A DNA stretch of 53,926 bases from Deltaproteobacteria bacterium (lineage in GTDB: Bacteria; Desulfobacterota; Dissulfuribacteria; Dissulfuribacterales; UBA3076), in the NCBI GenBank assembly GCA_030262715.1, contig JAJSZR010000003.1:1-53926 (forward strand), written 5' to 3'. Position numbers and translations under genes: made by a program. Under the pieces are notes generated by a model. The model was not told where the DNA came from. It was given only the letters and a program-made list of their open reading frames with translations, and made no database searches. Shown one piece after another: positions 1,094-19,461 of the stretch (the first letter of the stretch is position 1; each line of letters opens with the position of its first letter).

Positions 1094-1151
1094 TCATGAG
1101 GTGGCCATCCGTTTTTTGAAAAAGAAAAAAGTGTAAACCGATAAATGAAGG

Positions 1152-4100: not shown

Positions 4101-4595
4101 CTGTGGACCAGGCGCGCGGCATTGAGCAGGAGAAAGCTCGGTATCCCTCATGACAGGGCCCACATGGCTGTGCTCATCCAGCAGATGATCGTCCCGGAAA
4201 TTTCATTCGTTATGCATACTCTCAATCCTGTAGCTCAACACCTGGATGAAGTTTATGTGGAACTGGCAGCAGGCCTGGGTGAAGCGTTGACTTCCGGCAG
4301 GACGCCGGGTGTTCCTTATCGAATGGTCTGCAATAAGCATACAGGAAGGGTGCGTATGCTGGCCTTTGCGAGTTTCAGTTATGCAATATGGCCCGGCCCT
4401 TCGGGGAGTCTTATCCAAAAAACAGTGGATTATTCCGGAATAGGGCTGTCAAAAGATAAAGTTTTTAGAAACCGCTTGGGAGGACATTTGGGGGCAATCG
4501 GCCGATTTGTGGAAGATTCAGTGGGAATGCCTCAGGATATTGAGGGACTTGTTCTGGAAGACAAGATCTATCTGGTTCAATCACGTCCGCAGTAA
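1152..4595 (+). CDS. fusion protein: N-terminal xylose-isomerase-like TIM barrel (AP_endonuc_2 type) + GWD-like helical region + phosphohistidine swivel domain + C-terminal ATP-grasp nucleotide-binding domain
   Basis: 1147-aa ORF. aa ~1-270 carry TIM-barrel metal-site blocks ('SVHAPW', 'LSIENTP', 'CLDLGHAN', 'IHIHLHENYGDYDSHLP', 'IIFEQW'). The middle has 'RIRDIAHRNDIPKELKKEIKNTLQNKLHRCAGPEDL...FHKELKEFFNA', which I recognise as a GWD signature. The His domain is 'GLIVAHGTPLLSHLAVRARQGEIVFIVCED'. The C-terminus has 'GGSKAAAVRRLEEL', 'MVRSSANCEDLEGLSGAGLYDS' and 'DIEGLVLEDKIYLVQSRPQ'. The ATG at 1161 has better spacing from the GAAGGA at 1146-1151 and may be the true start. Confidence 0.85.
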   Translation: MPQMHIRIGNQSAFSASTVIQPFEYAVANGFDAFEWFPDKKESGEGWAEIDIAEEQRAFIKKTALVHDICLSVHAPWQANPLRPESRDIFLKNIEFAQDIGASLINIHLYTDEGIASYVQAIVPLIKDLAKAGIKLSIENTPITGPQDFNELFRQLLDLDSTDIAHVGMCLDLGHANLCEATLNDYLKFIDLLDSRVPIIHIHLHENYGDYDSHLPLFTGPAGKNDLGIKGFIERMERRNFSGCIIFEQWPEPPGLLNDARNRLLKMIGISERPAIEPSMAPGNDFVNMIAGADRKCRSWREKLSWIDHLLSDDTFELNTEQLIYMAIYLRFIGTGKIPCTEDGRHFRPSHHARMAHHIEDHLYKITTPENVFIIRRIYPWLPSFTSSFTRKEPLTRIRDIAHRNDIPKELKKEIKNTLQNKLHRCAGPEDLATSAALLKRITAPGAGYSPDFIKEFREFHKELKEFFNARSLEEQLEAMLREGSANSHTLELIHKFLKAKEKAHTPKEMVTSFELLTMLRSQFSEKLKEKTSSEGQKLQLTDIKLEDFSFVLLSQLINLFDALGKEISWSPALRCLELAIENLRLSGFDTGECQAIESELEAWSKDFKPRDREHLIRLKATIDRCRRLVEVYCNRILSLFPEKVERLGQALGVARHKIKIFCEVDIRSHLVFQLSKLIVLLLKGIRRLAALPPWDVIVPGKTSGRLVEAACLDDLPSPFDKAIVVLMEKVEGDEEIPAGVVGLIVAHGTPLLSHLAVRARQGEIVFIVCEDADRYAELKNSLGKQLVLDVSAEEVSLGFFSGPEQEAVTEREREVRRKRVWVPDVLLSPDRKLLPLDQVRPANGGSKAAAVRRLEELSQIEEAGFVTPPGVVVPFGVMEESLHKASVLEQEYRMLVSRLNKLPQSDFFEALRKLQGIIRQLDVPDETVSGVMEKFPRNERLMVRSSANCEDLEGLSGAGLYDSIANVSPPEVAQAVSKVWSSLWTRRAALSRRKLGIPHDRAHMAVLIQQMIVPEISFVMHTLNPVAQHLDEVYVELAAGLGEALTSGRTPGVPYRMVCNKHTGRVRMLAFASFSYAIWPGPSGSLIQKTVDYSGIGLSKDKVFRNRLGGHLGAIGRFVEDSVGMPQDIEGLVLEDKIYLVQSRPQ

Positions 4596-4610
4596 GGAGT
4601 GTTTTAAAAA

Positions 4611-4887
4611 AACCGTTCAGGGGTTCAAAGGGTCAAGTGACAAGAAAAAAATGAACATCGAACATCGAACGTCCAACATCGAATTTTGAATGGGAAAAGA
4701 TGAAGAAACAGACTTATGACCTGGAAGAAAGGCTACTTATTAAAAAATCTGAACTACTAAATGATATTCTAGAGGAAACAGAAATAGCCGTTGAATGTTC
4801 GGTATCGGATATTTGTTTTTCGTTCGATGTTGGACGTTCGATGTTCGATGTTCGACGTTCATCTTTTAATGTAACCTGTGAACGGTT
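4611..4887. mobile_element. intergenic inverted-repeat element (MITE/IVS-like) carrying a remnant of a four-helix-bundle (23S rRNA intervening-sequence protein family) gene
   Basis: Termini are AACCGTTCA (4611-4619) and its complement TGAACGGTT (4879-4887). The left arm 4651-4683 (ATGAACA TCGAACA TCGAACG TCCAACA TCGAA) is complementary to the right arm 4823-4862, which holds one extra TCGAACA heptamer. The interior encodes 'KKQTYDLEERLL...' (ORF 4700..4906), an N-terminal fragment typical of that family. Confidence 0.6.
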
Positions 4888-4902
4888 ACAAAAATATCAG
4901 AC

Positions 4903-5958
4903 ATGAAAAACAATAGTCCTTTCCCGTGCCCGCCGTTGCTTGCACTTTTTCAGAAAAGGATTGATGGCGATGACGCCCTTCTGCATTTGGCCAATTTACG
5001 CTTTAAAGAGGCAGGTCTTGGGACCGAATTTTATGCAACAACACCAGTGGAGCTGGACTGGCTGCTGGAATTCAAGCCCAGGCCTGAAACCCCTGCAGTG
5101 GCTCATTTGCGCAGAGATATAAATCTGTTTGAGGAAGAAGGCCGCAACCTGGTCATGGATTTTGCCACAAAATTCAAAGACCAGATCTTTGGGCTGGTCA
5201 TCCATGATCAAACCGAAATCACAACCCGTCTTGACGATTATTTGGCCGCATTGCAGGAGATAGAGTCAAGATCGAAAAAGGTCCCGGGAAGCCCTTATCT
5301 TTTTGTAGAATATGCCGCAGGCCTGGAACCTGATTTCTTTATTGAAATCTTTAAGGCGGTACGAGATCTTGAACATGTAAGCGCCTGTATTGATATAGGC
5401 CATATCGGCATATGGCAAACAAGATCTGCCTATTCACTCAACCATCCGGGAAAGGAGGTGTGCGCCATCACGCCGAATGATCCTGAACTGCCGGAGGTGA
5501 TCAGAGATGTCCAGAGTGCGGTTGATTCCGGATTAGACGCAGTGCTTCATGTAATTCGGGCCCTTGGCCGCTTAGAAAAACCATTGCATTTTCATTTGCA
5601 TGATGGACATCCGCTTTCCACCTTCAGTCCCTTTGGGATCTCTGACCACCTGAGTTTCCTGGTTGAAATTCCGATACCTTTTGAATACAAAGGCAGAAGA
5701 TCTCTTGATCCGATGTTCGGACCTTCAGGTCTTTCAAGGATAGTCACTGAATCATTGCAACTGCTGGGTCCGGATCGAGTTTCTTTTACACTTGAGATTC
5801 ATCCAACAGAAGGAAGGCTTCCTCTTGCTAATGCTTCTTACCTGTTTAATCACTGGAGAGACAAAACAAATGCGGAAAGGATGAACTATTGGCTGTCGAT
5901 TCTTGCTCAAAATCATAAACTGCTATTTGATATAGCCGTAAAAAGGATAGCGCTGTGA
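4903..5958 (+). CDS. xylose-isomerase-like TIM barrel protein (sugar phosphate isomerase/epimerase / AP_endonuc_2 superfamily), function unknown
   Basis: 351-aa ORF. Blocks 'FGLVIHDQ', 'LFVEYAAG', 'ACIDIGHIGIW' and 'LHFHLHDGHPLS...SDHLSF' parallel the metal-ligand blocks of the TIM-barrel domain in 1152..4595. Its stop overlaps the GTG start of the next gene (GTGA at 5955-5958). Confidence 0.55.
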   Translation: MKNNSPFPCPPLLALFQKRIDGDDALLHLANLRFKEAGLGTEFYATTPVELDWLLEFKPRPETPAVAHLRRDINLFEEEGRNLVMDFATKFKDQIFGLVIHDQTEITTRLDDYLAALQEIESRSKKVPGSPYLFVEYAAGLEPDFFIEIFKAVRDLEHVSACIDIGHIGIWQTRSAYSLNHPGKEVCAITPNDPELPEVIRDVQSAVDSGLDAVLHVIRALGRLEKPLHFHLHDGHPLSTFSPFGISDHLSFLVEIPIPFEYKGRRSLDPMFGPSGLSRIVTESLQLLGPDRVSFTLEIHPTEGRLPLANASYLFNHWRDKTNAERMNYWLSILAQNHKLLFDIAVKRIAL

Positions 5959-7259
5959 AAAAACCTGAAAAGATGATCATCTATAACCTGTTTCCCTTAT
6001 TGGCCGGAAAGTTCACAGACTGGGAAAGGCATTTATTGAGGGCATCTGAAATGGGCTTCAATTGGGTCTTTGTCAATCCCATTCAGCGTCCAGGTGAGTC
6101 GGGCAGCCTTTACTCAATAATGGATTATTATGATTTCAACCCTGTTTTAGTTGACCAAAAAAGTAAAAAAGCACCTCAGGAACAGGCAAAAGAGGCGATC
6201 AAGACCGCAAAAAAACTAGGTCTCAATGCAATGGTTGACCTGGTAATCAACCACTGTTCTGTAGATTCGGACCTGATTAAATCACACCCCGAATGGTTTC
6301 TATGGGAGTCCAGGGGTCACGTGGCCCATCCCTTCTGTGATGAAGACGGAAAAAAGGTGGTCTGGAAAGACCTGGCAAAATTCGATCACAGAGATACAAT
6401 GGATAAAGAGGGACTTTTTCAATACTTTCTCAATATAGTGAAATTCTTGATTGAATTGGGTTTTAGGGGATTTCGCTGTGACGCCGCTTATCAGGTCCCC
6501 AAAAGGCTGTGGGAAAGGCTCATTAAGGAGATAAAAAAGGGTCATCCTGAGATCGTCTTTTTTGCGGAGACACTCGGTTGCCCGTCAGACCAGACCAGAA
6601 GGACCGCCAGCGCCGGTTTTGATTATATATTCAATAGCTCCAAATGGTGGGATTTCAACAGCCCGTGGTTGATGGCACAATATGCCCTTACGCGAGAAGT
6701 TGTCCCTTCTATCAGCTTTCCTGAAAGCCACGATACTGTGAGACTCTGCGAGGAACTTCATGGCAACATCGAAGGGCTTAAACAACGCTATCTGTTTTCA
6801 GCCCTGTTTTCAGCGGGTGTCATGATGCCCATGGGATTTGAATTCGGTTTTTGTAAAAGGTTTCATGTGGTGAAAACCAGACCGGAAGATTGGGAAGAAA
6901 CAGACATTGATCTGGCCGCTTTCATTACTGAGGTCAACAAGTTGAAGTCGAATCAGGCAATCTTTCAGGAAGAGGCCCCTACAGAGATATTGTATGCCGG
7001 CAATCCAAATATCCTGCTCATGTGGAAGGCATCCATCAATGATCAAGAAGAGGCATTGCTGATTCTCAACAAGGACATTTATAACAAACAGCATTTTTAT
7101 GCGGAAAGCCTGCAGGAATTTATCCAGGCAGGAGCCCCGCTCAGTGATCTCTCTCCAGAATACCCAATGGAGTATATCCCGGTGCCATTTTCATACGATC
7201 TCCGGCCGGGACAAGGGATCGTACTGATCACTTCAAGAGATTTGATTCAGGATGATTGA
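5955..7259 (+). CDS. GH13 alpha-amylase-family catalytic-domain protein (GlgE-like sequence blocks)
   Basis: GH13 regions are present: I 'DLVINHCS', II 'GFRGFRCDAAYQVP', III 'VFFAETLG', IV 'SFPESHDT'. The N-terminal 'IYNLFPLLAG...MGFNWVFVNPIQRPGESGSLYS' and 'HPEWF' blocks resemble GlgE-type maltosyltransferases as I recall them. Confidence 0.8.
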   Translation: MKKPEKMIIYNLFPLLAGKFTDWERHLLRASEMGFNWVFVNPIQRPGESGSLYSIMDYYDFNPVLVDQKSKKAPQEQAKEAIKTAKKLGLNAMVDLVINHCSVDSDLIKSHPEWFLWESRGHVAHPFCDEDGKKVVWKDLAKFDHRDTMDKEGLFQYFLNIVKFLIELGFRGFRCDAAYQVPKRLWERLIKEIKKGHPEIVFFAETLGCPSDQTRRTASAGFDYIFNSSKWWDFNSPWLMAQYALTREVVPSISFPESHDTVRLCEELHGNIEGLKQRYLFSALFSAGVMMPMGFEFGFCKRFHVVKTRPEDWEETDIDLAAFITEVNKLKSNQAIFQEEAPTEILYAGNPNILLMWKASINDQEEALLILNKDIYNKQHFYAESLQEFIQAGAPLSDLSPEYPMEYIPVPFSYDLRPGQGIVLITSRDLIQDD

Positions 7260-7393
7260 ATCAATAGTAATTGAGTTTTCCCTGGATTTTTTGTAACCTT
7301 GGCCGGTGTGTCTTTATTCATTATGGTGGTTTTACACCGAGAGCTAAGGAGTTGTCCATATAAGCCAAGCAGTGGCTGGCGAAAGAGGGCGAA

Positions 7394-8122
7394 TTGATAA
7401 AGTCAATAGAAAGCAAAGACATCGAAAGGCCGAAATCCTACAATCCAGGATCTGAGAAACAGGAAAAAGCAAAACAATCAGATTTTGAAGCTTCCCAGGA
7501 TACCCAAGGACTCACCCGGGATTCCATAGATTTTCGCAACCTGTACGAAGAATACTGCGAAAGCCGGGTCGTTTTGCTTCCTGTGGAGCCCTACCTGATC
7601 CATGCCTACTGGGATGTTACCCATAACGACATCGAGAAGGCGAAACAGCGGCTGGGTGATGACTATAGAAAATCACAGGCCATCTTGAGATTCTATGATG
7701 TCACTAACATCATTTATGACGGTACAAATGCCCATGGTTTTTTCGACGTGGATATAGATCTTCAATCCCAAAACTGGTACGTAGATCTCTGGAGCCCGGA
7801 TAAATCATACTTTGTTGATTTAGGATTTAAGACCGGAGATGGTTTCTTCCTCCCGGTAACCCGGTCAAGTGTTGCCAGGACACCTTGTGCCTGGCCTGCC
7901 CCCAAAGCTGACGAACACTACATGTCCGTGGCAGAGGATGAAGAAGGCCTGTCAAAAATCGAAGTTCCTGAAAAACCTTTGCCTCAAAGCATTCAAGCTC
8001 GATATGAAAAACGAGTAGATTTTGATCTCACGGAAATGAGCGAGAAAGCATTCACACTTGGCATATCCTCAGAATTTATCTCGTCGACACAGGGAAAGAA
8101 CGATTCTGCTGACAGGCTTTGA
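7394..8122 (+). CDS. DUF4912 domain protein (usual partner of GH57 branching enzymes)
   Basis: 'VVLLPVEPYLIHAYWDV' is the characteristic DUF4912 opening. Its stop overlaps the start of the GH57 gene (8119-8122). Confidence 0.6.
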   Translation: MIKSIESKDIERPKSYNPGSEKQEKAKQSDFEASQDTQGLTRDSIDFRNLYEEYCESRVVLLPVEPYLIHAYWDVTHNDIEKAKQRLGDDYRKSQAILRFYDVTNIIYDGTNAHGFFDVDIDLQSQNWYVDLWSPDKSYFVDLGFKTGDGFFLPVTRSSVARTPCAWPAPKADEHYMSVAEDEEGLSKIEVPEKPLPQSIQARYEKRVDFDLTEMSEKAFTLGISSEFISSTQGKNDSADRL

Positions 8123-9705
8123 AGATGGAAAAAGGTTATTTAGCGATAGTCCTTCATGCACACCTCCCTTTTGTGAGGCACCCTGAACATGTGGATTCCC
8201 TGGAAGAAAACTGGGTTTTCGAAGCCATTACCGATACGTACATCCCTCTCCTTTCCGTACTGGATGGTCTTGTAGAAGATGGGATTGACTTTCGATTGAC
8301 CTTGTCAATCACACCCACTCTTGCCTCAATGTTCGCCGATCCGTTCTTGCAGTCCCGTTATCTGGACAGACTTGAACGACTGATAGAGCTGGGCAAGAAA
8401 GAAGTCAAACGAACAAGATACCACCACGAGTTTAATATACTGGCTCTGATGTATCACAGACGCCTTTTAAAAGTGCGTAAAGCATTCCTTAACCGTTATA
8501 ATCTGAACCTGGTTCAGGCCTTTAAACGCTTACAGGAGCTTGGGAAGGTAGAAATCATCGCCAGCGCTGCCACTCACGGATACCTTCCACTGCTTTCTGT
8601 TAATACATCGGCTGTTCGAGCACAAATTCGGGTCGGAATCAAAAATTATAAACAGGTATTCGGTCGAAATCCCAAGGGCTTCTGGTTACCCGAATGCGGC
8701 TATTATCCCGGAGTTGACGAGCTTCTCAGGCAAGATGGCATTCGCTACACTATTTTAGAGACTCACGGTATCACTCGTGCTGGACCAAGACCAAAATATG
8801 GTGTGTACGCACCGATCTATTGTCCATCAGGAGTAGCTGCCTTCGGGCGTGATCCTGAATCGTCCAAGCAGGTCTGGAGTTCAATAGAAGGATATCCAGG
8901 AGATTATGATTACCGGGAATTCTATCGTGACATCGCCTACGATCTGGATCTTGATTATATCAAGCCCTATATTCATAGAGACGGCATCCGAGTGGACACC
9001 GGCTTCAAGTACTTCCGCGTCACCGGCAAAAACAATCATAAAGAGGTCTATGTTCCCAAAAGGGCAAAGAGAAAAGCCGAGATCCACGCAGGGGATTTCA
9101 TGTTTAACAGGGAAAAACAGATTGAATATCTGGCTTCGGTCATGAATCGCAAGCCCATAATTGTGGCACCTTACGATGCTGAACTGTTCGGCCATTGGTG
9201 GTTTGAAGGCCCTGACTGGCTTAATCGCCTGATTCGTAAGATCGACTCGGAACAAAAAACGTTCCGGCTTATTACCCTTTCCGAATATCTGGAAGAATAC
9301 CCGATCAGTCAGGTTTCAGCACCTTCCACTTCCAGTTGGGGATACAAGGGCTTTCACGAAACCTGGCTCAATGGGACAAACGACTGGATCTACCGCCAAC
9401 TGCATCAGGGGGCGCAGTTTATGGAGAGGCTGGCAACGAATCATCCCACAGCCGAGGGCCTCACTCTGAGGGCGCTCAATCAAGCGGCAAGAGAGCTGCT
9501 GGTAGCACAGGCGAGTGACTGGGCCTTTATGATCAACTCGGGCGCTATGGCAGAGTATGGGACTCGACGGACAAAGACGCACCTCTTGCGACTGGGCAGG
9601 CTCATGAGAGAAATTGAAGACCGGAAGATAGATGAAGGCTGGCTTTCAATGATTGAGAGCCAGGATAACATTTTTCCACAGATTGATTACCGCTCTTATG
9701 CCTAA
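8119..9705 (+). CDS. GH57-family 1,4-alpha-glucan branching enzyme (GH57 N-domain + DUF1957 C-domain)
   Basis: 'GYLAIVLHAHLPFVRHPE', 'TPTLASM', 'HGYLPLL', 'GFWLPECGY' and 'PYDAELFGHWWFEG' are GH57 branching-enzyme signatures. Confidence 0.85.
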   Translation: MKMEKGYLAIVLHAHLPFVRHPEHVDSLEENWVFEAITDTYIPLLSVLDGLVEDGIDFRLTLSITPTLASMFADPFLQSRYLDRLERLIELGKKEVKRTRYHHEFNILALMYHRRLLKVRKAFLNRYNLNLVQAFKRLQELGKVEIIASAATHGYLPLLSVNTSAVRAQIRVGIKNYKQVFGRNPKGFWLPECGYYPGVDELLRQDGIRYTILETHGITRAGPRPKYGVYAPIYCPSGVAAFGRDPESSKQVWSSIEGYPGDYDYREFYRDIAYDLDLDYIKPYIHRDGIRVDTGFKYFRVTGKNNHKEVYVPKRAKRKAEIHAGDFMFNREKQIEYLASVMNRKPIIVAPYDAELFGHWWFEGPDWLNRLIRKIDSEQKTFRLITLSEYLEEYPISQVSAPSTSSWGYKGFHETWLNGTNDWIYRQLHQGAQFMERLATNHPTAEGLTLRALNQAARELLVAQASDWAFMINSGAMAEYGTRRTKTHLLRLGRLMREIEDRKIDEGWLSMIESQDNIFPQIDYRSYA

Positions 9706-9712
9706 ATTGAGC

Positions 9713-9740
9713 AATTAGCTGTTAGCCATTAGCGTTTAGC
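9713..9740. repeat. 4 x 7-bp periodic tract (AATTAGC TGTTAGC CATTAGC GTTTAGC), solo arm-like sequence
   Basis: Read directly. It lies 8 nt after the GH57 stop, between the GH57 gene and glgA. It has the same 7-bp periodicity as the arms of the two inverted-repeat elements, but no complementary partner lies nearby. Confidence 0.6.
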
Positions 9741-9826
9741 TTTGGAAAGAGGGACTTTCGTTTTATGAAGGATGCCGAATTCATCAATGATCGAGTGGTA
9801 ATATCCGGAAACAGAGGTCTAATGGC

Positions 9827-11293
9827 ATGTATGTCGTGATGATTACTCCAGAGTGCGCTCCGGTTGCGAAAGTTGGGGGTTTGGGCGACGTTGTTCAGGG
9901 TCTTTCCCATGAGCTCGCAATACGGGGGAATACTGTAGAGATTATCCTCCCTAAATACGATTGCATGCGGTACGATCTAATTTTCGGTCTCCATAAGACA
10001 TACTCTGATCTCAGGGTCCCTTACCATGATCAACATTTTTATTGCGATGTATATTTTGGTTTTGTGGATGGGCTAAAATGCTTCTTTATTGAATCCCACT
10101 CTTTTAAGAATTTCTTCAATCGGGGCATATTTTACGGACATCATGATGATCCTGAACGTTTTGCCTTTTTTTGCCGGGCAGCATTGGAGTTTATGCTAAA
10201 GACGAACAAGCATCCTGAAATTATCCATTGCCATGATTGGCAGACCGGACTTGTGCCGGTACTTCTGTTTGATATGTATAAATATTTGGGAATGACCCAC
10301 CCCAGGGTCTGCTATACCTTGCACAATCTTAAACATCAGGGTGTCACAGGGGAACACATACTCAGGCAGGTCGGCCTGAATCCTGCCAAGTATATCACTC
10401 CGGACCGGCTTCAGGATAACTTTAACCACAGTGCTATCAACTTCATGAAGGGAGGAATTGTCTATTCTAACTTTGTGACAACTGTTTCTCCCCGATATGC
10501 CAGGGAGATAAAAAATTCAGACCTTGGCTTTGGGCTCCAGCATACCCTTCATGTGCATAGCATTAAATTTGGAGGGGTCTTGAACGGAATTGATTACAAT
10601 GTATGGAATCCTGAAATCGATCCATATATATCGTGTCGGTATACAATTGATAGCATTAATGATAAATACAAAAATAAAGAGGCCCTCCGTAATAGACTAT
10701 GGCTAAGACACGACTTCAAACCGATTGTCTCTGTGATAGGTCGATTAGATCATCAAAAAGGTGTTGATTTAATACGGCATGGTATTTTTTATTCTTTGGC
10801 AAACGGTTGCCAGTTTGTCCTGTTAGGGTCGAGTCCTGAACCAGCTACCAATAATGATTTTTGGGGGCTAAAGCACTATTTGAATGATAACCCGGACTGC
10901 CACCTTGAAATCTCATACAATGAGGAATTAGCCCATCTGATTTATGCAGGTGCCGACATGATTCTCATACCAAGCGCATTTGAACCGTGCGGCCTGACAC
11001 AGATGATCGCCATGAAATGCGGAACAGTTCCCATTGTTCGAAATACCGGTGGATTGGCAGACACAGTCTTTGACGCAGATTATGCCCAAAAACCATATCA
11101 TGAACGTAATGGCTATGTGTTTAATGATTTTGATAATGAAGGCCTCGAGTCTGCTCTGAAACGGGCTATAGGCCTGTGGTATATCTATCCCAAATATTTT
11201 AGGGAACTGATGATTAATGGGATGCGATATGACTATTCCTGGAACCATCCTGCAGGACATTATCTAAATATTTACAATTATATCAGGGAGTAA
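9827..11293 (+). CDS. glgA: glycogen/starch synthase (GT5)
   Basis: The N-terminal 'ECAPVAKVGGLGDVV' (KxGGL motif), 'HCHDWQTGL' and 'IPSAFEPCGLTQM' are canonical GlgA blocks. Confidence 0.9.
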   Translation: MYVVMITPECAPVAKVGGLGDVVQGLSHELAIRGNTVEIILPKYDCMRYDLIFGLHKTYSDLRVPYHDQHFYCDVYFGFVDGLKCFFIESHSFKNFFNRGIFYGHHDDPERFAFFCRAALEFMLKTNKHPEIIHCHDWQTGLVPVLLFDMYKYLGMTHPRVCYTLHNLKHQGVTGEHILRQVGLNPAKYITPDRLQDNFNHSAINFMKGGIVYSNFVTTVSPRYAREIKNSDLGFGLQHTLHVHSIKFGGVLNGIDYNVWNPEIDPYISCRYTIDSINDKYKNKEALRNRLWLRHDFKPIVSVIGRLDHQKGVDLIRHGIFYSLANGCQFVLLGSSPEPATNNDFWGLKHYLNDNPDCHLEISYNEELAHLIYAGADMILIPSAFEPCGLTQMIAMKCGTVPIVRNTGGLADTVFDADYAQKPYHERNGYVFNDFDNEGLESALKRAIGLWYIYPKYFRELMINGMRYDYSWNHPAGHYLNIYNYIRE

Positions 11294-11302
11294 AAAATAG
11301 GG

Positions 11303-12856
11303 CTATCCCTTCATCATCTCATCCACGGAGGGGAATCTGGTAAGATCGGTATGGGGAAGAAAAAGGGCCCCGGTTAGCTGGTTCATAAAATCTTTGCGCA
11401 CATTCATCTCGAGATAAGTTATCTTGTCGCAGATCTCCTCTACCTCTTTTCTGGCTTTTCTCCACGTAAGGGCCTCAATCGCCCCGGTACCTGCGGCATT
11501 TCTCAGGCCCTCAAAGCGCTCAAGAGGCACATCAGGCAACATCCCAATTATTATGGCCTTTTTGGGATCTATATAATTGCCAAAGGCACCCGCAACATAA
11601 AACCTCTCGATATCCTCAAACCCGATACCAACGCTCTGGATTACCACGTTCAGTATAGTGTGCATGGCCCCTTTTGAACGAATCAGGTTTTTTATATCGC
11701 TCTGACTGATATAGACCGGCTCCCCATGGCCTGTCTCATGAGGACCTGCCACAACATAGACCCATTCCCCACCTATCCGTTGCATCCTGGCACTATCCCG
11801 ATCCACCACAAGCTTTCCGGTTGGGTCCACCAGTCCTGCAACAAACATGGCTGCCAGGAGATCTATTATTCCTGAACCACACAATCCCTCCGGGGCCTTG
11901 CCGTCTATGGTACGATATCTGACTGTCAAAAGAGTTCGGTCTATGTCCAACCGGTCTATGGCCCCTGGCTTTGCCATCATACCACAGGAGGAAATTCCCC
12001 CTTCAAGTGCCGGGCCGGCCGCCCCTGCACAGGCCACGAGCCAGTCCCTGTTTCCCAGCACTACCTCTGCATTGGTGCCAACATCCACGAGCATGGAGAT
12101 CTCCTCCTTGAGGTGCATGCCAGAGGCCAGGATGCCTGCCAGAAGATCACCGCCAAAGTAACTCCCCACGTTTGGAAAACAATAGAGCCATGCCTGAGGA
12201 TGGACATTTATTCCTAATTCCCAGGGCCGGATCAGATCAAAGCGGTTAACCACGGGAATGTATGGTTCCCGGCAGATATGGCCTGGATCAAGACCTAAAA
12301 AGAAGTGGCACATAGTGGTGTTGCCGGCCAATGCAATAAAGGATATATCCTCCGGGCTCATGCCTCCTCCTGCCGTAATCTCCTGTACAGAGGAATTAAA
12401 AAGGCCAACGACCTCAGACTGTAGTGTCTCCAATCCATTGCCTTGCCCAGCAAAGAGGATCCTTTCCAGGATGTCCTCACCGTGGACCCTTTGCGGGTTG
12501 GGTTTTGATAGAGTAGAAACGGTCTCGCCTGAACCAAGGTCTACCAGGTAAAATACCACGGTGGTGCTTCCAAGGTCCACAGCCAGTCCGTAAGGCGACA
12601 GAGATTTGCTTTTAACGCTGACCTGGGCGACCTCCCAGCCGGAAGGTCCATCCAGCACCAATGTTTGCACCTTGTAGTCAGAGGAGGGGAGAATGTCAGG
12701 CAGGCATTTGCAGATCTTTAAAGGGAACAGAGGTGGTTGCCCCAGGATAGGCTCCAAGGCCGCTCTTACACGTGACTCGTGACTGCGGTTGTCGCTAAGA
12801 GACGGGCTGGGGAGATCCAGGCTGATTGCGCGGCATACAGGGTCAAAACGGTCCAT
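11303..12856 (-). CDS. ASKHA-fold ATPase, DUF4445 / RACo-like (corrinoid-protein reductive-activase family) without an obvious N-terminal ferredoxin domain
   Basis: 'LAVDLGSTTVVFYLVDL', 'IALAGNTTMCHFFLGLDP', 'LVDVGTNAEVVLGN' and 'CAGAAGPALEGG' are DUF4445/ASKHA phosphate-binding motifs. Confidence 0.7.
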   Translation of the reverse strand: MDRFDPVCRAISLDLPSPSLSDNRSHESRVRAALEPILGQPPLFPLKICKCLPDILPSSDYKVQTLVLDGPSGWEVAQVSVKSKSLSPYGLAVDLGSTTVVFYLVDLGSGETVSTLSKPNPQRVHGEDILERILFAGQGNGLETLQSEVVGLFNSSVQEITAGGGMSPEDISFIALAGNTTMCHFFLGLDPGHICREPYIPVVNRFDLIRPWELGINVHPQAWLYCFPNVGSYFGGDLLAGILASGMHLKEEISMLVDVGTNAEVVLGNRDWLVACAGAAGPALEGGISSCGMMAKPGAIDRLDIDRTLLTVRYRTIDGKAPEGLCGSGIIDLLAAMFVAGLVDPTGKLVVDRDSARMQRIGGEWVYVVAGPHETGHGEPVYISQSDIKNLIRSKGAMHTILNVVIQSVGIGFEDIERFYVAGAFGNYIDPKKAIIIGMLPDVPLERFEGLRNAAGTGAIEALTWRKARKEVEEICDKITYLEMNVRKDFMNQLTGALFLPHTDLTRFPSVDEMMKG

Positions 12857-12874: not shown

Positions 12875-13174
12875 CTACTGATCTCTTTCCCGTTCGGTCT
12901 GGTCCGGAGTCACATCTATAATAAGTGAGCTTGCGTCCAGATCACTATTGGTATCACTACGCCTGGTACATTCTTTCTCAAACTGCCGCATGACCTTGCG
13001 AACACGCCATGCCATGTAGCTGGCTGCAATAGCAAAGACTACCACAGCGCCCAAAAACAGCGGCAGGGCCAGAAAAAAGGCGGCCACGGCAAGCAGTCCC
13101 AACCCCAATAGGGTCAGTGGAGAGACATTAGTGGATTTGTAGTATATTCTGCGTTGTGTCATTTTAGTCCTCAT
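12875..13174 (-). CDS. small membrane protein (two predicted TM helices)
   Basis: 99-aa ORF with the hydrophobic stretch 'LTLLGLGLLAVAAFFLALPLFLGAVVVFAIAASYMAW'. Its start overlaps the PilZ gene stop by 1 nt (TAATG). Confidence 0.4.
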   Translation of the reverse strand: MRTKMTQRRIYYKSTNVSPLTLLGLGLLAVAAFFLALPLFLGAVVVFAIAASYMAWRVRKVMRQFEKECTRRSDTNSDLDASSLIIDVTPDQTERERDQ

Positions 13175-13503
13175 TAGTTTTCGTTCAGGATATCCTTCAA
13201 TGAAAAAAATGAGTCGAGATCCATCTCCTCAAACCGGATTCCCATCCCGCTGTTATCCGTGCGAATTACACGTCCTTTAAAAAAGAGCACGAGCTTCGAA
13301 TTGGTATGTGTAAGATGTAATTCCATTTCACATGAAGTGCCGACAGAAAGCTTGATATCACTATAACAGTAAATTCCTTTCAAACTAATATCTTTTGTCT
13401 GATCGCAACGTATCTCCTTAGCATCCTGTTTAAGAGACCAAAGGCATGCCACGGCCTTGAAAGGGACCCGAAAATTTTTGCGTTGCTCATTATCTGCTAT
13501 CAT
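13174..13503 (-). CDS. PilZ domain protein (putative c-di-GMP receptor)
   Basis: It has both PilZ signature motifs: RxxxR ('RKNFR') and D/NxSxxG ('DISLKG'). Confidence 0.65.
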   Translation of the reverse strand: MIADNEQRKNFRVPFKAVACLWSLKQDAKEIRCDQTKDISLKGIYCYSDIKLSVGTSCEMELHLTHTNSKLVLFFKGRVIRTDNSGMGIRFEEMDLDSFFSLKDILNEN

Positions 13504-14832: not shown

Positions 14833-16182
14833 TTAAATATTTTTCCTCCAACGGGGATGTTTGATACCTAGTTTTTTAATCCTATAGTTTATTGTCCTTT
14901 TGCTTATACCAAGTTTTTCTGCTGCATCCTTTTGAATCCATAGACATTTATCTAATGCTTTTATGATAGCTTTTCTCTCAGTATCTGCCAATGACTCGGT
15001 TTTGGGAAGTTCAGTGTGCTCAAATGGAATAATATCGTTTCCCAAGACTATATTATGCTTTTTAATTATTTTATCTTCGCTGAGCAATATGCCTCTTTCG
15101 ATAACATTAGAAAGCTCACGAATGTTACCTGGCCAGTGATAGTGCTTAAACATTTCCAATATATCAGGATGGAATCCCCGGATATCCTTTTTTATATCTC
15201 GACAGTGCCTTTTCAGGAAATAGGATGTCAGTTCTTCTATATCTTCCATCCGTTCTTCTAAAGGAGGCAAAAAGATATTTATTACGTTAATCCTATAGTA
15301 AAGATCTTCTCTAAACCCTCCTGAATGGATCTCTTGTTCTAAATTCTTGTTAGTAGCAGCTATAATTCGAACGTCAGAATTGATAGTTTTACTTCCTCCT
15401 AACCTTTCAAATGTCCTATTTTCCAAAAAGTGTAAAAACTTCGATTGCAAGGCGGGGCTGAGGTCCCCAATTTCATCCAAAAAAACAGTTCCTCCGTTTG
15501 CTTGTTCAAATCTGCCTATCCTGGCTTTCGTAGCTCCGGTGAAAGCCCCTTTTTCATGCCCAAATAATTCACTTTCTAATAAGGTCTCAGGAATATTTGC
15601 ACAGCTTATATGAACAAAAGGTCTTTTTTTACGATGGCTGTTAAAATGGATTGCTCCGGCTAAAAAACTTTTTCCTGTGCCTGTTTCTCCTCCTATTAAA
15701 ATGGTAGAATTCGTTTTACAAACCTTCTTTATCGTATTAATTACCCTTCTTATACTAGGAGCTTTGGCAACAACACTATCAAGGTCATAAATAACATCTT
15801 GTTGTCGTCTCAAATAGTCAATTTCGTATTTTAGGCTTCGACCTTCCAGGGCTTTTTCAACAGTATTTTTTATTTTTTCCTCAGAAACCGGTTTTGCAAT
15901 AAAATCATAAGCTCCCTTTTTAATTGCTTCTACCGCTTGTTCTGTTCGATTGTCGCCGATGGCAAGCACAGGGGTAGTTGGTATAGATTTGGTAGATTCC
16001 AGCAACTCCATTCCATTGGCCAATTCCATATCTATAACAATCAAGTCATAAATTATCTTTTCTAATTTTTGAGAGATGTTGCCTTTATTAGGCCAAAACT
16101 CAAGGGCATACTTCGCTGCCAATGCGTTCTTTGAAAGATTCTTCAAAGCCGATTCCTGTGTAACTATTAAAAATCTAGGCAT
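14833..16182 (-). CDS. sigma-54-dependent transcriptional activator (NtrC family: receiver-like domain + AAA+ + Fis-type HTH)
   Basis: It has Walker A 'GETGTGKS', the sigma-54 contact loop 'EKGAFTGA', and the C-terminal HTH 'AAEKLGISKRTINYRIKKLGI'. The receiver-like N-terminus keeps D ('VIDMEL') and K ('IAKP'), but reads 'LIVTQES' where 'DD' is expected. Confidence 0.9.
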   Translation of the reverse strand: MPRFLIVTQESALKNLSKNALAAKYALEFWPNKGNISQKLEKIIYDLIVIDMELANGMELLESTKSIPTTPVLAIGDNRTEQAVEAIKKGAYDFIAKPVSEEKIKNTVEKALEGRSLKYEIDYLRRQQDVIYDLDSVVAKAPSIRRVINTIKKVCKTNSTILIGGETGTGKSFLAGAIHFNSHRKKRPFVHISCANIPETLLESELFGHEKGAFTGATKARIGRFEQANGGTVFLDEIGDLSPALQSKFLHFLENRTFERLGGSKTINSDVRIIAATNKNLEQEIHSGGFREDLYYRINVINIFLPPLEERMEDIEELTSYFLKRHCRDIKKDIRGFHPDILEMFKHYHWPGNIRELSNVIERGILLSEDKIIKKHNIVLGNDIIPFEHTELPKTESLADTERKAIIKALDKCLWIQKDAAEKLGISKRTINYRIKKLGIKHPRWRKNI

Positions 16183-16307
16183 ATTACATTCCTGAAACTT
16201 GAATTACAATTTAGTTATTATAATACTATAGGTCTTTTTTTCAACTAAATTTTCATGAATTCCTCCCTATTTACCGCAGAAAATCTATTTTCCCATAATG
16301 GTGTAAA

Positions 16308-16323
16308 TGGCATGAACATTGCT
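16308..16323 (+). promoter_or_regulatory. sigma-54 (-24/-12) promoter
   Basis: TGGCAT-GAACA-TTGCT matches the TGGCAC-N5-TTGCW consensus with correct spacing. It is divergent from the sigma-54 activator gene and about 170 nt upstream of the 16493 start. Confidence 0.6.
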
Positions 16324-16344
16324 GTTAGCATAAGTAGCAACGTT

Positions 16345-16432
16345 TGAAAAAGGCAAACCATTCGAAAGAATGGAACGCAAAGGCACCGGCCTAAATCCTT
16401 GGGTTGCAGGATACGGCAGCGGGTCTGCCGGA
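16345..16432 (+). promoter_or_regulatory. c-di-GMP-I (GEMM-I) riboswitch aptamer
   Basis: The sequence is AAAAAGGCAAACC-ATTC-GAAA-GAAT-GGAACGCAAAGGCACCGGCCTAAATCC...GGCAGCGGGTCTGCCG. It contains the conserved GEMM-I blocks: GGCAAACC, a GNRA (GAAA) loop closing CCATTC/GAATGG, ACGCAAAG, CCGGCCTAAA and AGCGGG..GCCG. These are nearly collinear with the V. cholerae Vc2 aptamer as I recall it. Confidence 0.8.
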
Positions 16433-16437
16433 CGAAA

Positions 16438-16489
16438 ACACCTCCTAGATGATCTAGGTGCACTTCGTACCGGGTAACAAGGGAGGTGT
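16438..16489 (+). promoter_or_regulatory. riboswitch expression platform: anti-SD/SD helix
   Basis: ACACCTCC (16438-16445) is the perfect complement of GGAGGTGT (16482-16489). The latter is the Shine-Dalgarno sequence 4 nt upstream of the ATG at 16493. A small palindrome CTAGA-TGA-TCTAG sits inside the loop. No U-tract follows, so translational rather than terminator control is suggested. Confidence 0.5.
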
Positions 16490-16492
16490 GTT

Positions 16493-17704
16493 ATGAAAGA
16501 GCCGCGAATTTCCCATATACTGTCATTTTGTATATTTTTCATTTTTCTTATAATTCCATTTTTAGCTAGTGCGGCTGTGCTTAAGCTGGCCTGGGATCCC
16601 AGTACTGAACAAAATTTGGCAGGGTATAAGATATACTACGGCTATGCCAGTGGAGATTATGATACTTCTATAGATGTAGGCAATACCACAACCTTTCAAA
16701 TTACAGACCTGGAGTATGATCAAACCTATTATTTTGCCACAACTGCCTACGATACTTCAGGTTTAGAAAGCGATTATTCTAATGAGATAAGCTGTACAAT
16801 CCCAAAATCAGATTCAGACAGAGATGATTTAACAGAGGAAGACGAGATCAATATCTATGGGACAGACCCCAACAGCCCTGATACCGATAAAGATGCTATC
16901 AATGATGGGGATGAAGTAGCCTTTTGGGGATATAATTGGGATATGGATTATGATAACGATGGTATTATCAATCTTTTAGATCCAGATTCTGACAATGATG
17001 GTTTTTTAGATGGTCTAGAGACCATTTACGGATTTGATCCCTCTGATCCATACTCCAGACCCCCGTCTCAAAGTGATGGCCTATTCGTTTGTGATGCGGA
17101 AGAAGGTGATAATTCCGATTTTGATGGAACCTTCACACAAGGTTTAAATACATTTACTGCGACTGAAAGCGCAAAAAATAATGGTAATTACGGATATGCC
17201 GCAGGCTTTGACGGTTCAAGTGACGAAGTCTATGCGTATAAGGACTTTTCGGATCAAAGCGATGTCTATGCCAGGTTCTACTTCAAGATCACAAATGATT
17301 TTCACCTGGAAGGTGATTGGGTAAAAATACCGGTATTTCAGTTAATGGATGGGGGCACCTCTTTAGTTATTTTCTATTTATTAGAGGCTAATTCAGGAGA
17401 ATATGGATGGAGTGCTGAATTGTGGAATCCTTATGCGCCCATAGCAGGTGAGTGGCGTGGTCTTAGGGCTAATAGATGGTATATGATCGAAATCAGATGG
17501 AAACAAGATCCCTTGGAGGGTGGAGCTGAAATTTGGATAGACGATGTGCCTATGGGCAGCGTTTATACAGAAGATACATCCATGCAAAATGCCAATAGTA
17601 TCCAAGTTGGAAGAGGCTATTCAGGTGACGGCGATCCGGGTGTTCTTGTAACCTCAGGCGCTATATATTTCGATGATGTAAGGGTTGATACTTCACATAA
17701 GTAG
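16493..17704 (+). CDS. secreted protein: signal peptide + FN3-like domain + thrombospondin-type-3-like Ca-binding repeats + C-terminal LamG/concanavalin-like domain
   Basis: The signal peptide is 'ILSFCIFFIFLIIPFLASAA'. 'LAWDPSTEQNLAGYKIYYG...YYFATTAYDTSGLESDYSNE' is FN3-like. The D-rich repeats are 'GTDPNSPDTDKDAINDGDE' and 'DYDNDGIINLLDPDSDNDGFLDGLE'. The tail '...IWIDDVPMG...IYFDDVRVD' is typical of LamG-like beta-sandwiches. Confidence 0.7.
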   Translation: MKEPRISHILSFCIFFIFLIIPFLASAAVLKLAWDPSTEQNLAGYKIYYGYASGDYDTSIDVGNTTTFQITDLEYDQTYYFATTAYDTSGLESDYSNEISCTIPKSDSDRDDLTEEDEINIYGTDPNSPDTDKDAINDGDEVAFWGYNWDMDYDNDGIINLLDPDSDNDGFLDGLETIYGFDPSDPYSRPPSQSDGLFVCDAEEGDNSDFDGTFTQGLNTFTATESAKNNGNYGYAAGFDGSSDEVYAYKDFSDQSDVYARFYFKITNDFHLEGDWVKIPVFQLMDGGTSLVIFYLLEANSGEYGWSAELWNPYAPIAGEWRGLRANRWYMIEIRWKQDPLEGGAEIWIDDVPMGSVYTEDTSMQNANSIQVGRGYSGDGDPGVLVTSGAIYFDDVRVDTSHK

Positions 17705-17769
17705 GTGAATATTCGATACATAAAAATAAATTAATGAATAACTAATTCTCTGAGCTGAGGAATAAAATA

Positions 17770-19461
17770 ATGAATTTTACTAAATTTATGTATAGGACTC
17801 AAGTGCTAATATTGGCAACTTTGGCCATTTTTGTCATGGCCTCGGCAACTTGGGCAAAGACCTATTATGTAGATGCAACAAGGGGCAATGACAAAAAAAG
17901 CGGACAGTCATTATCGGCTGCCTGGAAAACCATAGCAAAGGTTAATGCCTCAAGTTTTAATCCTGGAGACCAGATTTTATTCAAAAGAGGGGAAATATGG
18001 CGGGAAACACTTATTGCGCCATCATGTGGCTCATCTGGCAATCCGATAACGTTTGGTGCTTATGGTAGTAATAATAATAAACCAATAATTTCAGGAGCAG
18101 ATGACCTTACTATAAGCAGCTATAAATGGGCGCCTTCAATTAAAGGCACTAATGAGTATTATCTTAAAAAGTCTTCCGGAGGTAATCCTGGTATAATCAA
18201 ACCTCTTCTGGTCTGGATGGACCAAGACTGTTTAACCAAAGGCAAAGTAGGTTCTCTTTCCGATCATCAGTGGGCTTGGGGAGACATTGATAGGCTTGGA
18301 TATAATACCGTTTATATCCGTGATGATTCCGGAAATCCTGATATTTCGGGAGTGCTAATCGAGGCGGGCAATAGGGACACCATTTTAGAAATTGGCGATA
18401 GATCTTATCTGAATTTTACGGACTTGGAATTGAGGCAATCAGATGCGATGTGGGGAGGAGTGATTCATATCTATGATAGTTATAATATAAGTTTTGAGAA
18501 TTGCATTATACATGATGGGCATTATGCTGTTTTTTATGCGTACCATAGTGATGCAGATCCTCCCAGCGGAATTACGATTGATTCAAGCATCATATACGGA
18601 TGCAGAAGGACTGATAGTCCTTATGGCGCAATTATTAAGTTAGATGGATGTAATAATACTATCATAAAAAATAGTAAGATTTATGAAAGCAACGATGCCA
18701 CTTTGGCAGATGCCATTTTTATATATAACTCAGATAACAATATAATAGAACATAATCACATATATGGTCCAGCAGGAAACCTTTTATACATAAAGGAAAA
18801 TTCTGATTTTAACATTGTCAGGTATAATAAATTCCATGATGGATACATGGGGATTCAAATAAGGGTTGGTTCGAATGATAATAAAGTTTTTTATAATGTA
18901 ATATATAATATGTATGGAGGACCAGCTATACAATCTGATGGCGATGTACCAATTCATGGGACTAAGATTTACAACAACATTATTTATACAACCGGGAACA
19001 ACCATAATGGGATTTCTATTCACAATACAAATACTAACTGCGAGGTCAAAAACAACTTAGTATATGTAGGAGAGTATTCTTTTGCTTTACATATTCATAA
19101 AAATAGCAGAAATGGGGTAATTAGTGATTATAATTTGCTGAGGAATGTATCTGGTGCCCTCATAACGTGGGCAGGTACCCCCTATACAATGTCTCAATTT
19201 TCGGATTATCAAAATACAGCCGGTCAGGATTCACATTCAAAAACTGATGATCCTAAATTTGTAAATTCTGAAAACCATGATTTTAAACTCCGGTCTACTT
19301 CTCCCTGTATCAATACTGGTACGTATATCGATCTTTCTGAGGATTTTGAAGGAACTTCAGTCCCCCAAGGAGGTAAGGTAGATATGGGGTCATTCGAATT
19401 CAAATATGTAGAAGGAATTATACCACCAAAAAATTTGCGAATTATTATGTCTTCATCATAA
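17770..19461 (+). CDS. secreted right-handed parallel beta-helix repeat protein (pectate-lyase fold; possible EPS lyase/epimerase/hydrolase)
   Basis: It has a signal peptide. 'KTYYVDATRGNDKKSGQSLSAAWKTIAKVN' is the typical beta-helix family opening. Repeated 'NN.I..N.I' coils run through aa 250-450. Confidence 0.75.
   Translation: MNFTKFMYRTQVLILATLAIFVMASATWAKTYYVDATRGNDKKSGQSLSAAWKTIAKVNASSFNPGDQILFKRGEIWRETLIAPSCGSSGNPITFGAYGSNNNKPIISGADDLTISSYKWAPSIKGTNEYYLKKSSGGNPGIIKPLLVWMDQDCLTKGKVGSLSDHQWAWGDIDRLGYNTVYIRDDSGNPDISGVLIEAGNRDTILEIGDRSYLNFTDLELRQSDAMWGGVIHIYDSYNISFENCIIHDGHYAVFYAYHSDADPPSGITIDSSIIYGCRRTDSPYGAIIKLDGCNNTIIKNSKIYESNDATLADAIFIYNSDNNIIEHNHIYGPAGNLLYIKENSDFNIVRYNKFHDGYMGIQIRVGSNDNKVFYNVIYNMYGGPAIQSDGDVPIHGTKIYNNIIYTTGNNHNGISIHNTNTNCEVKNNLVYVGEYSFALHIHKNSRNGVISDYNLLRNVSGALITWAGTPYTMSQFSDYQNTAGQDSHSKTDDPKFVNSENHDFKLRSTSPCINTGTYIDLSEDFEGTSVPQGGKVDMGSFEFKYVEGIIPPKNLRIIMSSS

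Follow-up and report, generated by a model that had tools for sequence, protein, structure and literature searches.

A predicted sigma-54 promoter stacked on a c-di-GMP-I riboswitch, probably a translational OFF switch, ahead of a two-gene operon at the edge of an exopolysaccharide gene island

The DNA analysed here, referred to below as the window, is a stretch of 53,926 nucleotides (nt) from a deltaproteobacterium (contig JAJSZR010000003.1, assembly GCA_030262715.1). Between a gene for a sigma-54 activator and two genes for secreted proteins it contains a 310-nt intergenic region (16183-16492). We consider it probable, with moderate confidence, that this region controls the two genes, as an operon, in two layers: transcription from a sigma-54 promoter, and translation through a riboswitch of the cyclic di-GMP type I (c-di-GMP-I, GEMM-I), which would turn translation off. 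The identity of the aptamer, the conservation of the promoter motif, the three competing helices of the leader and the mutual exclusivity of these helices were all computed. The parts of the control region are the following.

16308-16323, plus strand: predicted sigma-54 promoter (-24/-12 element TGGCAT-GAACA-TTGCT); matches the consensus and is conserved in seven related leaders.
16341-16434, plus strand: c-di-GMP-I (GEMM-I) aptamer, identified by Rfam scores and by helices conserved across leaders.
16428-16442, plus strand: 5' arm of an alternative (anti-sequestor) helix, composed of C92, the 3' strand of P1, the linker and the first anti-Shine-Dalgarno bases; can pair with 16457-16473.
16438-16446, plus strand: anti-Shine-Dalgarno (anti-SD) sequence ACACCUCCU, paired with 16481-16489 in the minimum-energy fold.
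16452-16475, plus strand: predicted switch segment, an inner hairpin in the OFF state, whose part 16457-16473 is the 3' arm of the alternative helix in the ON state; proposed from folding and conservation.
16481-16495, plus strand: Shine-Dalgarno (SD) region GGGAGGUGU (16481-89) and start codon ATG (16493-95), read directly.

When the whole window was scanned with Rfam at the gathering threshold, a single match was obtained, to the c-di-GMP-I clan, at 16343-16433 on the plus strand (E value 3.9e-14). The conserved GEMM-I blocks, which the initial annotation had placed at 16345-16432, are thus present. The canonical family RF01051, named in that annotation as the check on the assignment, scored 65.5 bits on 16347-16429 once the flanks of P1 had been trimmed (a truncated match, model positions 6-84 of 87), well above its gathering cutoff of 35. 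Helix P1 is formed by 16341-46 and 16429-34, P1a by 16353-16378 with a GAAA loop at 16364-67, and P1b by 16381-16426 with the two halves of the tetraloop receptor, CCUAAA at 16390-95 and UACGG at 16412-16; the interhelix residues C16376 and G16419 occupy the consensus GAC and AG positions. By means of the RF01051 structure line the residues contacting the ligand in Vc2 could be mapped to G16352 (G20), A16379 (A47) and C16428 (C92); the roles of these Vc2 residues are described in PMC4744006.

Related leaders were collected through homologues of the fibronectin type III (fn3) protein encoded by the first downstream gene. They constitute a close family (L001, whose leader is identical to that of L087, and L082, L083, L084, L085, L086 and L088), to which a scan of metagenomes, with the N-terminal half of this protein as query, added two distant leaders, L002 and L003; the matches of that scan were mostly unrelated TSP3-repeat proteins, and only these two had a related leader. 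The aptamer helices were 95-100% paired in seven leaders, as opposed to 32-43% when the partner strands were slid, and the P1 pair 16346:16429 varied between GC, AU and GU.

The best full-length Rfam label of the aptamer is RF03167 (c-di-GMP-I-GGC; 68.4 bits, cutoff 59), one overlapping match of the same clan being suppressed. Taken at face value, this label would make the aptamer a true GGC variant or, more generally, a receptor for a ligand other than c-di-GMP, such as the cyclic AMP-GMP (c-AMP-GMP) type, which we regard as highly improbable. The distinction between GGC and canonical aptamers, a G instead of an A at the A47 position, was read from the consensus lines of the two Rfam families and is reportedly what the label GGC refers to. 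Where the RF03167 consensus reads ACGC-G-AAG, the window and all ten related aptamers read ACGC-A-AAG, and the tetraloop-receptor extension of the window is an insertion in the RF03167 model, the consensus of which is devoid of it. Differences of a few bases are enough to make the ten related aptamers flip between RF01051 (69.3-84.6 bits) and RF03167 (61-73 bits), and the window flips to RF01051 after trimming of the P1 flanks. The RF03167 label was given not only to the window and five of the ten relatives but also to 3 of the 18 unrelated A47 aptamers checked, and is therefore not diagnostic. The c-AMP-GMP (GEMM-Ib) switches carry an A at the G20 position, reportedly as a rule (G20A), whereas position 16352 is a G. 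On these grounds the label is a near-tie of E values rather than the sign of a genuine variant, and the aptamer is an ordinary canonical c-di-GMP-I aptamer, predicted to bind c-di-GMP. As a side observation, the assignment of RF03167 to aptamers with the canonical A47 comes from the competition within the Rfam clan; because canonical A47 aptamers receive this label, automatic annotation will over-call the GGC variant in these lineages.

Immediately downstream of the aptamer, ACACCTCC (16438-16445) is perfectly complementary to GGAGGTGT (16482-16489) in the SD region. This pairing had been noticed in the initial annotation, and it proved to be conserved with compensatory changes. In the structure predicted by RNAfold the helix extends by one pair (16438-16446 with 16481-16489) and encloses the inner hairpin; in the full-length ensemble the probability of the SD being unpaired is 0.001. 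The part of the leader downstream of the aptamer folds with a z-score of -2.9, and the complementarity of the SD region to the upstream leader exceeds that in all 300 shuffles. In the close family the nine pairs of the anti-SD helix are kept at 95%, with a CG pair replaced by UA in L085 (a double compensatory change) and an end pair that is GU, AU or GC. The whole OFF-state structure is 96.6% paired in the seven close leaders, compared to 32-43% after sliding; the observed values were attained by 50-90 of 500 shuffles, a weak control because the close-family sequences are 91% identical. A broader set comprised 28 non-identical leaders of the same layout from many genomes, compared with dinucleotide shuffles: SD complementarity beat the shuffles (p <= 0.05) in 23 of them, with a median z-score of -3.5. 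A helix between the 5' leader and the coding region (GUAGC with GCUGC), seen in the folds of several orthologues, was rejected because it is not kept in the window.

The 3' strand of P1 has a second possible partner. Together with C92, the linker and the first bases of the anti-SD it can pair with 16457-16473, and the resulting alternative helix is incompatible with P1, with the inner hairpin and with the full anti-SD:SD helix. Its 15 pairs are 94% kept in the close family (25-41% when slid), with pair 16429:16472 varying between CG, UA and UG. If the transcript is folded without the SD, 7 of 9 leaders adopt the alternative helix as their minimum-energy fold; one of them is L002, where it is made of different sequence. 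With the structures enforced on such pre-SD transcripts, each of the seven close leaders favoured the alternative state over the P1 state, by 1.6-8.6 kcal/mol; at full length the two states lay within -2.9 to +7.3 kcal/mol of each other. The same hairpin recurs across the 28 divergent leaders and is more stable than in shuffles in 19 of them (binomial 8.5e-19). In these leaders 6.5 of the first 8 nt (a G, C92 and the P1 3' strand) are in the closing stem, as compared with 3.4 of 8 in shuffles, and for the 10-nt 3' strand taken by itself 9 of the 28 leaders exceed the shuffles (binomial 5.6e-6). When P1 was enforced, the SD was fully paired in all seven close leaders. The initial annotation had held that the ON/OFF sense cannot be read from the sequence. 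With a conserved alternative helix that uses the 3' strand of P1 the sense becomes predictable: on account of the pre-SD folding intermediate and the mutual exclusivity of the helices, the riboswitch is probably a translational OFF switch, in which high c-di-GMP would lead to masking of the SD.

Upstream of the aptamer, direct reading and conservation support the -24/-12 element at 16308-16323, facing away from the activator gene as had been annotated. The GG at 16309-10 and the GC at 16321-22 have the canonical GG-N10-GC spacing, and TGGCAT-GAACA-TTGCT fits 10 of the 11 specified positions of TGGCAC-N5-TTGCW. The pattern TGGCAYN5TTGCW has one match on both strands of the 53.9 kb, with 0.24 expected and at least one match in 23 of 100 shuffles, a count that by itself is only suggestive; the match carries weight because it is intergenic, lies beside a gene for a sigma-54 activator and precedes the riboswitch stem by 18 nt. 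Seven related leaders keep the element as (T/C)GG(C/T)AT-AAAAA-TTGC, although the spacer and flanks differ and indels occur on both sides. The distance from TTGC to P1 is 14-18 nt in the window and the related leaders, placing the predicted start always 2-7 nt before P1. In the window transcription would start at about 16333-16335, which leaves approximately 7 nt to P1 (16341) and 10 nt to the first conserved block, less than the 20 nt or so between start site and aptamer blocks given in the initial annotation. The three stacked elements of that annotation, sigma-54 site, GEMM-I aptamer and SD-sequestering helix, are all there, each beyond chance. The distant leader L003 has TGGCAT-CTCTT-TTGCT about 130 nt upstream of its aptamer. 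Peculiar to the window is a 9-nt tandem duplication of the -24 region at 16300-16313 (ATGGTGTAA ATGGCATGAA), of which the second copy alone is correctly spaced to TTGC.

To see the promoter in a wider context, species-representative genomes were scanned with an aptamer pattern, which yielded at least 120 loci with 121 similar aptamers in 1.96 Mb of DNA; Rfam confirmed all 18 of the survey loci that were checked (67-89 bits). A sigma-54 site was counted as strong if at least 10 of 11 positions matched, and all counts given here are among the matches listed. Such a site was found within 200 nt upstream on the same strand for 26 of 118 aptamers (22%), on the opposite strand of the same DNA for 0 of 118, farther upstream for 1 of 117, and downstream for 1 of 118. 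Fisher tests on these counts gave 6e-9 and 1e-7, statistics that ignore phylogeny and come from a sample shaped by the aptamer pattern. Eight of the 11 perfect sites in the 1.96 Mb fall in the upstream stretches. Flanks and spacers of the sites are unrelated, and 17 sites cluster 54-72 nt before AAAGGC. Loci from genomes with delta-, Desulfo- or Syntropho- names had the site in 20 of 39 cases, compared to 6 of 82 aptamers elsewhere (Fisher 1e-7), and the first downstream gene encoded an fn3 protein in 18 of 30 sigma-54-associated cases versus 7 of 63 others (Fisher 2e-6). These figures suggest that the pairing of sigma-54 site and aptamer is recurrent, specific in strand and position, and accompanies secreted proteins headed by fn3. 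The full-text literature searched yielded no account of a c-di-GMP riboswitch combined with a sigma-54 promoter, an absence that is no proof of novelty.

Put together, the elements suggest the following course of events. Transcription would start around 16334 at the sigma-54 promoter and, being sigma-54-dependent, would need an activated enhancer-binding protein. The transcript would open almost directly with the c-di-GMP-I aptamer. Without ligand P1 would be weak, and during synthesis 16428-16442 would pair with 16457-16473; the anti-SD would thus be tied up before the SD is transcribed, the ribosome-binding site would emerge free, and translation would be ON. With c-di-GMP bound, P1 would be locked, 16452-16475 would fold on itself, and the anti-SD, left without its competitor, would pair with the SD region and mask it (OFF). 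By this logic the operon would be expressed when the signal of the activator is present and c-di-GMP is low.

Several observations weigh against this scheme. Covariation in the close family is thin, again owing to the 91% identity: 50-140 of 500 shuffles match the observed measures over both helices. At equilibrium the SD is masked in most leaders with or without the P1 3' strand, so the two states are not separated, and 2.5-10.6 kcal/mol would be needed to open the SD (10.1 in the window); because equilibrium favours the masked SD, the ON state would have to be kinetic, i.e. co-transcriptional. The centre of the alternative helix is weaker in the window than in the relatives, with A·C mismatches at 16437:16463 and 16438:16461. 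As to the transcriptional layer, rpoN is absent from the window, the region that precedes the -24 element also resembles a weak sigma-70 promoter (9 of 12 consensus positions, see below), and an activator gene is adjacent in 5 of the 26 loci listed in the survey as having both sigma-54 site and aptamer; adjacency being rare elsewhere, the link to this particular activator derives only from the adjacency seen in the lineage of the window.

The masked SD at equilibrium is also the starting point for the opposite sense, in which the same parts would serve to turn translation ON at high c-di-GMP, either because the aptamer stacks on or disturbs the anti-SD helix, or because the apo aptamer sequesters better. 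Since masking is predicted whether or not P1 forms, it is not evident that the ligand-free RNA would be ON. Matrix components are usually induced at high c-di-GMP, and the secreted fn3, lectin and calcium-repeat proteins encoded near the exopolysaccharide locus resemble such components. Both ON and OFF switches exist among c-di-GMP-I riboswitches, Vc1 having been described as a positive regulator (PMC4744006). Against an ON switch, no helix was found that would free the SD upon formation of P1. The anti-SD has a single conserved competitor, which requires the P1 3' strand and C92 and would be lost, not gained, on ligand binding, and with P1 enforced none of the seven close leaders left the SD open. 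We therefore regard the ON sense as unlikely, though still a serious contender, and retain the OFF switch as the working model.

A different question is which promoter feeds the leader. Directly upstream of the -24 element lies a further conserved feature.

16263-16298, plus strand: 36-nt block (CTCCCTATTTACCGCAGAAAATCTATTTTCCCATAA), nearly invariant in all eight family members.

This block could be a binding site for the activator or for integration host factor (IHF), or a weak sigma-70 promoter, TTTACC-18-CATAAT (16270-16299). In the last case the leader might be transcribed from the sigma-70-type promoter, or from both, the -24/-12 element being unused or secondary. The near-invariance of the block that bears the hexamers in eight relatives speaks for this possibility, as does the -10 hexamer abutting the -24 element in the orthologues. 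A match of 9 of 12 positions is weak, however, the scan having found six such sites in 500 nt of this AT-rich region, and the block is equally readable as an activator or IHF site. The 9-nt duplication in the window parts the block from TGGCAT and leaves the -24/-12 spacing undisturbed, and among the similar aptamers listed elsewhere it is the sigma-54 site that is enriched upstream, strand-specifically and with unrelated flanks. Transcription from the sigma-70-type site thus seems improbable to us, and the sigma-54 promoter is preferred. A search for upstream activator sites found weak AT-rich inverted repeats and nothing stronger.

The output of the switch might also be mainly transcriptional: masking of the SD would uncouple transcription from translation and lead to Rho-dependent termination or messenger RNA (mRNA) decay within gene 1. 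Masking of the SD commonly has polar effects, the scan of the leader for plus-strand intrinsic terminators found none, and every structure described above is compatible with this possibility. It would supplement the translational OFF switch more than compete with it; as the main output we give it a low probability.

The divergent neighbour of the control region, and the promoter that may serve it, are as follows.

14833-16182, minus strand: sigma-54 enhancer-binding protein of the NtrC family (Pfam Sigma54_activat, 1.4e-69; Response_reg; HTH_8).
16217-16244, minus strand: sigma-70-like promoter TTGAAA-16-TATAAT (11 of 12 consensus positions; consensus match only), which probably serves the activator gene.

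The activator consists of a receiver, an AAA+ sigma-54 interaction domain and a Fis-type helix-turn-helix, and its translation contains a Walker A motif (GETGTGKS), the GAFTGA loop and the receiver Asp. No NCBIfam equivalog, that of the PEP-CTERM regulator PrsR included, scored above cutoff. The same gene is the divergent neighbour wherever the contig extends far enough (L083, L087 and L001). Judged by this adjacency, the NtrC-type regulator next door is what most likely drives the predicted sigma-54 promoter. In its receiver the phospho-acceptor Asp and the conserved Lys are kept and the N-terminal acidic pair is replaced (LIVTQE for the usual DD), so the receiver may be atypical.

Downstream, the leader runs into two genes on the plus strand.

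16493-17704, plus strand: gene 1, secreted protein with signal peptide, fn3 domain (Pfam), TSP3-type calcium-binding repeats and a C-terminal domain, as read from the translation.
17770-19461, plus strand: gene 2, secreted right-handed beta-helix protein (Pfam Beta_helix, NosD).

Homologues of gene 1 carry TSP3_bac, H_lectin or LamG domains, and its C-terminal domain is covered by one homologue; an exact look-up of the protein on public contigs gave no match. Gene 2 is the probable operon partner of gene 1, and L001, L082, L084 and L086 likewise have a beta-helix gene after the fn3-type gene; the gene at this position in L088 has no Pfam match on record. The AlphaFold model of the gene 2 product (predicted local distance difference test, pLDDT, 93) has as its nearest solved folds the GH136 lacto-N-biosidases, the GH120 enzyme XylC, PL9 and PL6 lyases and capsule depolymerases, with template modelling (TM) scores of 0.4-0.63, which denote likeness at the level of the fold only. 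At that level the protein resembles glycan-cleaving enzymes. An OFF switch on a glycanase-like enzyme beside an exopolysaccharide (EPS) locus would fit a role in matrix remodelling at low c-di-GMP; the gene content would also be compatible with a role in building the matrix, which would point to an ON switch.

A terminator search after gene 2 gave nothing convincing. From 19563 on, the genes are on the minus strand, convergent with the operon, and form an EPS cluster of the Wzx/Wzy type (Wzy_C, flippase, priming sugar transferase, Wzz/GNVR, Poly_export, NeuB, aminotransferase and acetyltransferases). What the switch heads is thus an operon of two genes (16493-19461) bordering the EPS island, not the island itself. 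The initial annotation saw the control region in front of the matrix/EPS genes; only the secreted fn3/TSP3 and beta-helix genes follow it, and the EPS cluster is on the opposite strand.

Some further observations concern the surroundings. Within the EPS cluster the Bac_transf priming sugar transferase (31729-32933, minus strand) is split into two overlapping open reading frames, covering profile positions 1-67 and 70-178, which may reflect either a frameshift, a pseudogene or an assembly error; a second TSP3-repeat protein, of 648 amino acids, is encoded at 32997-34943 (minus strand). Two genes past the activator, between argG and a small unannotated open reading frame, lies a gene for a small stand-alone PilZ-domain protein (13174-13503, minus strand), a possible c-di-GMP receptor. 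The ArgG protein of the window is 92-97% identical to proteins of metagenome-assembled genomes labelled Deltaproteobacteria or Thermodesulfobacteriota. At the beginning of the window, 203-11293 (plus strand) holds an alpha-glucan/glycogen set (glucan-water-dikinase-like proteins, an amylase-type enzyme, a GH57 branching enzyme and a starch-synthase-type glycosyltransferase), after which a RACo-type corrinoid activase is encoded at 11303-12856.

Comparison of the related loci showed abrupt changes behind the control region. L001 1-964 and L087 1252-2215 are 99.9% identical over the 5' end of the activator gene, the leader and the parts encoding signal peptide and fn3 domain; around codon 103 the similarity ends abruptly, and the C-terminal domains are unrelated. 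Between L083 and the window, ArgG is 97% and the activator 98% identical, whereas the leader with the 5' part of the gene is only 88% identical, and the 3' part of the L083 gene encodes an H-type lectin. Such patterns (window 16493-17050, L001/L087 and L083) point to swapping of modules behind a constant control region. L088 contains a decayed copy of the riboswitch (541-614), in which unrelated sequence has replaced everything in the aptamer that lies beyond the 5' strand of P1b; the sigma-54 element upstream is intact, and the called gene has no signal peptide. In L003, group II intron domains (RF02005, 161 bits) occupy 1090-1311 on the minus strand, about 400 nt upstream of the riboswitch copy.

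With the survey taken into account, we lean cautiously towards seeing the window as one instance of a widespread module of the Desulfobacterota type: a sigma-54 promoter, gated by its activator and free of basal transcription, joined to a c-di-GMP-I OFF switch whose stereotyped platform measures about 65 nt, placed mostly before fn3-headed secreted proteins, whose C-terminal modules would be exchanged by recombination at the end of fn3 while the control region and the fn3 head are kept. If so, proteins of the cell surface or of matrix remodelling would be subject to the logic 'activator signal AND NOT c-di-GMP', and sigma-54, if the rate found in the survey holds genome-wide, would be the promoter class favoured by the riboswitch in that phylum. 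The pairing suggests that many bacteria of the sulfate-reducer type gate surface or matrix-remodelling proteins through two inputs independent of each other, an enhancer-binding protein at transcription and c-di-GMP at translation, and it offers a hypothesis of how functions of the low-c-di-GMP, dispersal type become confined to particular conditions.

Since each part is textbook, the locus is a good annotation rather than a discovery: c-di-GMP-I aptamers, sigma-54 promoters and platforms that mask the ribosome-binding site are already known, and what is added is a predictable sense and the recurrent pairing. Because the sense can be predicted from a conserved three-way competition, the 160-nt leader, short and easy to test, could serve as a model for translational OFF switches responding to c-di-GMP in an uncultured lineage. 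Among the closest known systems is Vc2 of Vibrio cholerae (c-di-GMP-I, RF01051), with which the window shares the three-helix aptamer, the GAAA tetraloop with its receptor, and the G20, A47 and C92 contacts. Vc2 is reported to repress translation by masking of the ribosome-binding site (Inuzuka et al. 2018, cited in PMC11705072); as far as that account goes, ligand-stabilised P1 leading to masking of a ribosome-binding site away from the aptamer is common to both, being a prediction for the window. In contrast to Vc2, the promoter of the window is predicted to be sigma-54-dependent, with a start about 7 nt before P1, the platform is compact (about 65 nt) with a three-way competition between P1, the alternative helix and anti-SD:SD, and the host belongs to an uncultured Thermodesulfobacteriota lineage.

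In Geobacteraceae, fibronectin type III genes regulated by GEMM riboswitches were described in the genome paper of Geobacter bemidjiensis (PMC2996986), which considered the gene ancestral and prone to duplication. As in the window, the gene directly behind a GEMM-I aptamer encodes an fn3 protein that is probably secreted or located at the cell surface; PMC2996986 does not connect these genes with a sigma-54 promoter, with an expression platform or with a regulatory sense. With the GGC family RF03167 the window has in common the P1 stem and the core sequence of P1a, and it differs in having an A, not a G, at the distinguishing position and in possessing the receptor extension.

Unlike the promoters of tfoY and gbpA in Vibrio cholerae, which are of the sigma-70 type with CRP or VpsR as input, the promoter of the window is of the sigma-54 class, and its transcription is predicted to be strictly activator-dependent. 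What the window shares with tfoY (Vc2) and gbpA (Vc1) is the stacking of a regulated promoter and a c-di-GMP-I riboswitch on one gene, the promoter input of gbpA being cAMP-CRP according to PMC4545359 and PMC4744006.

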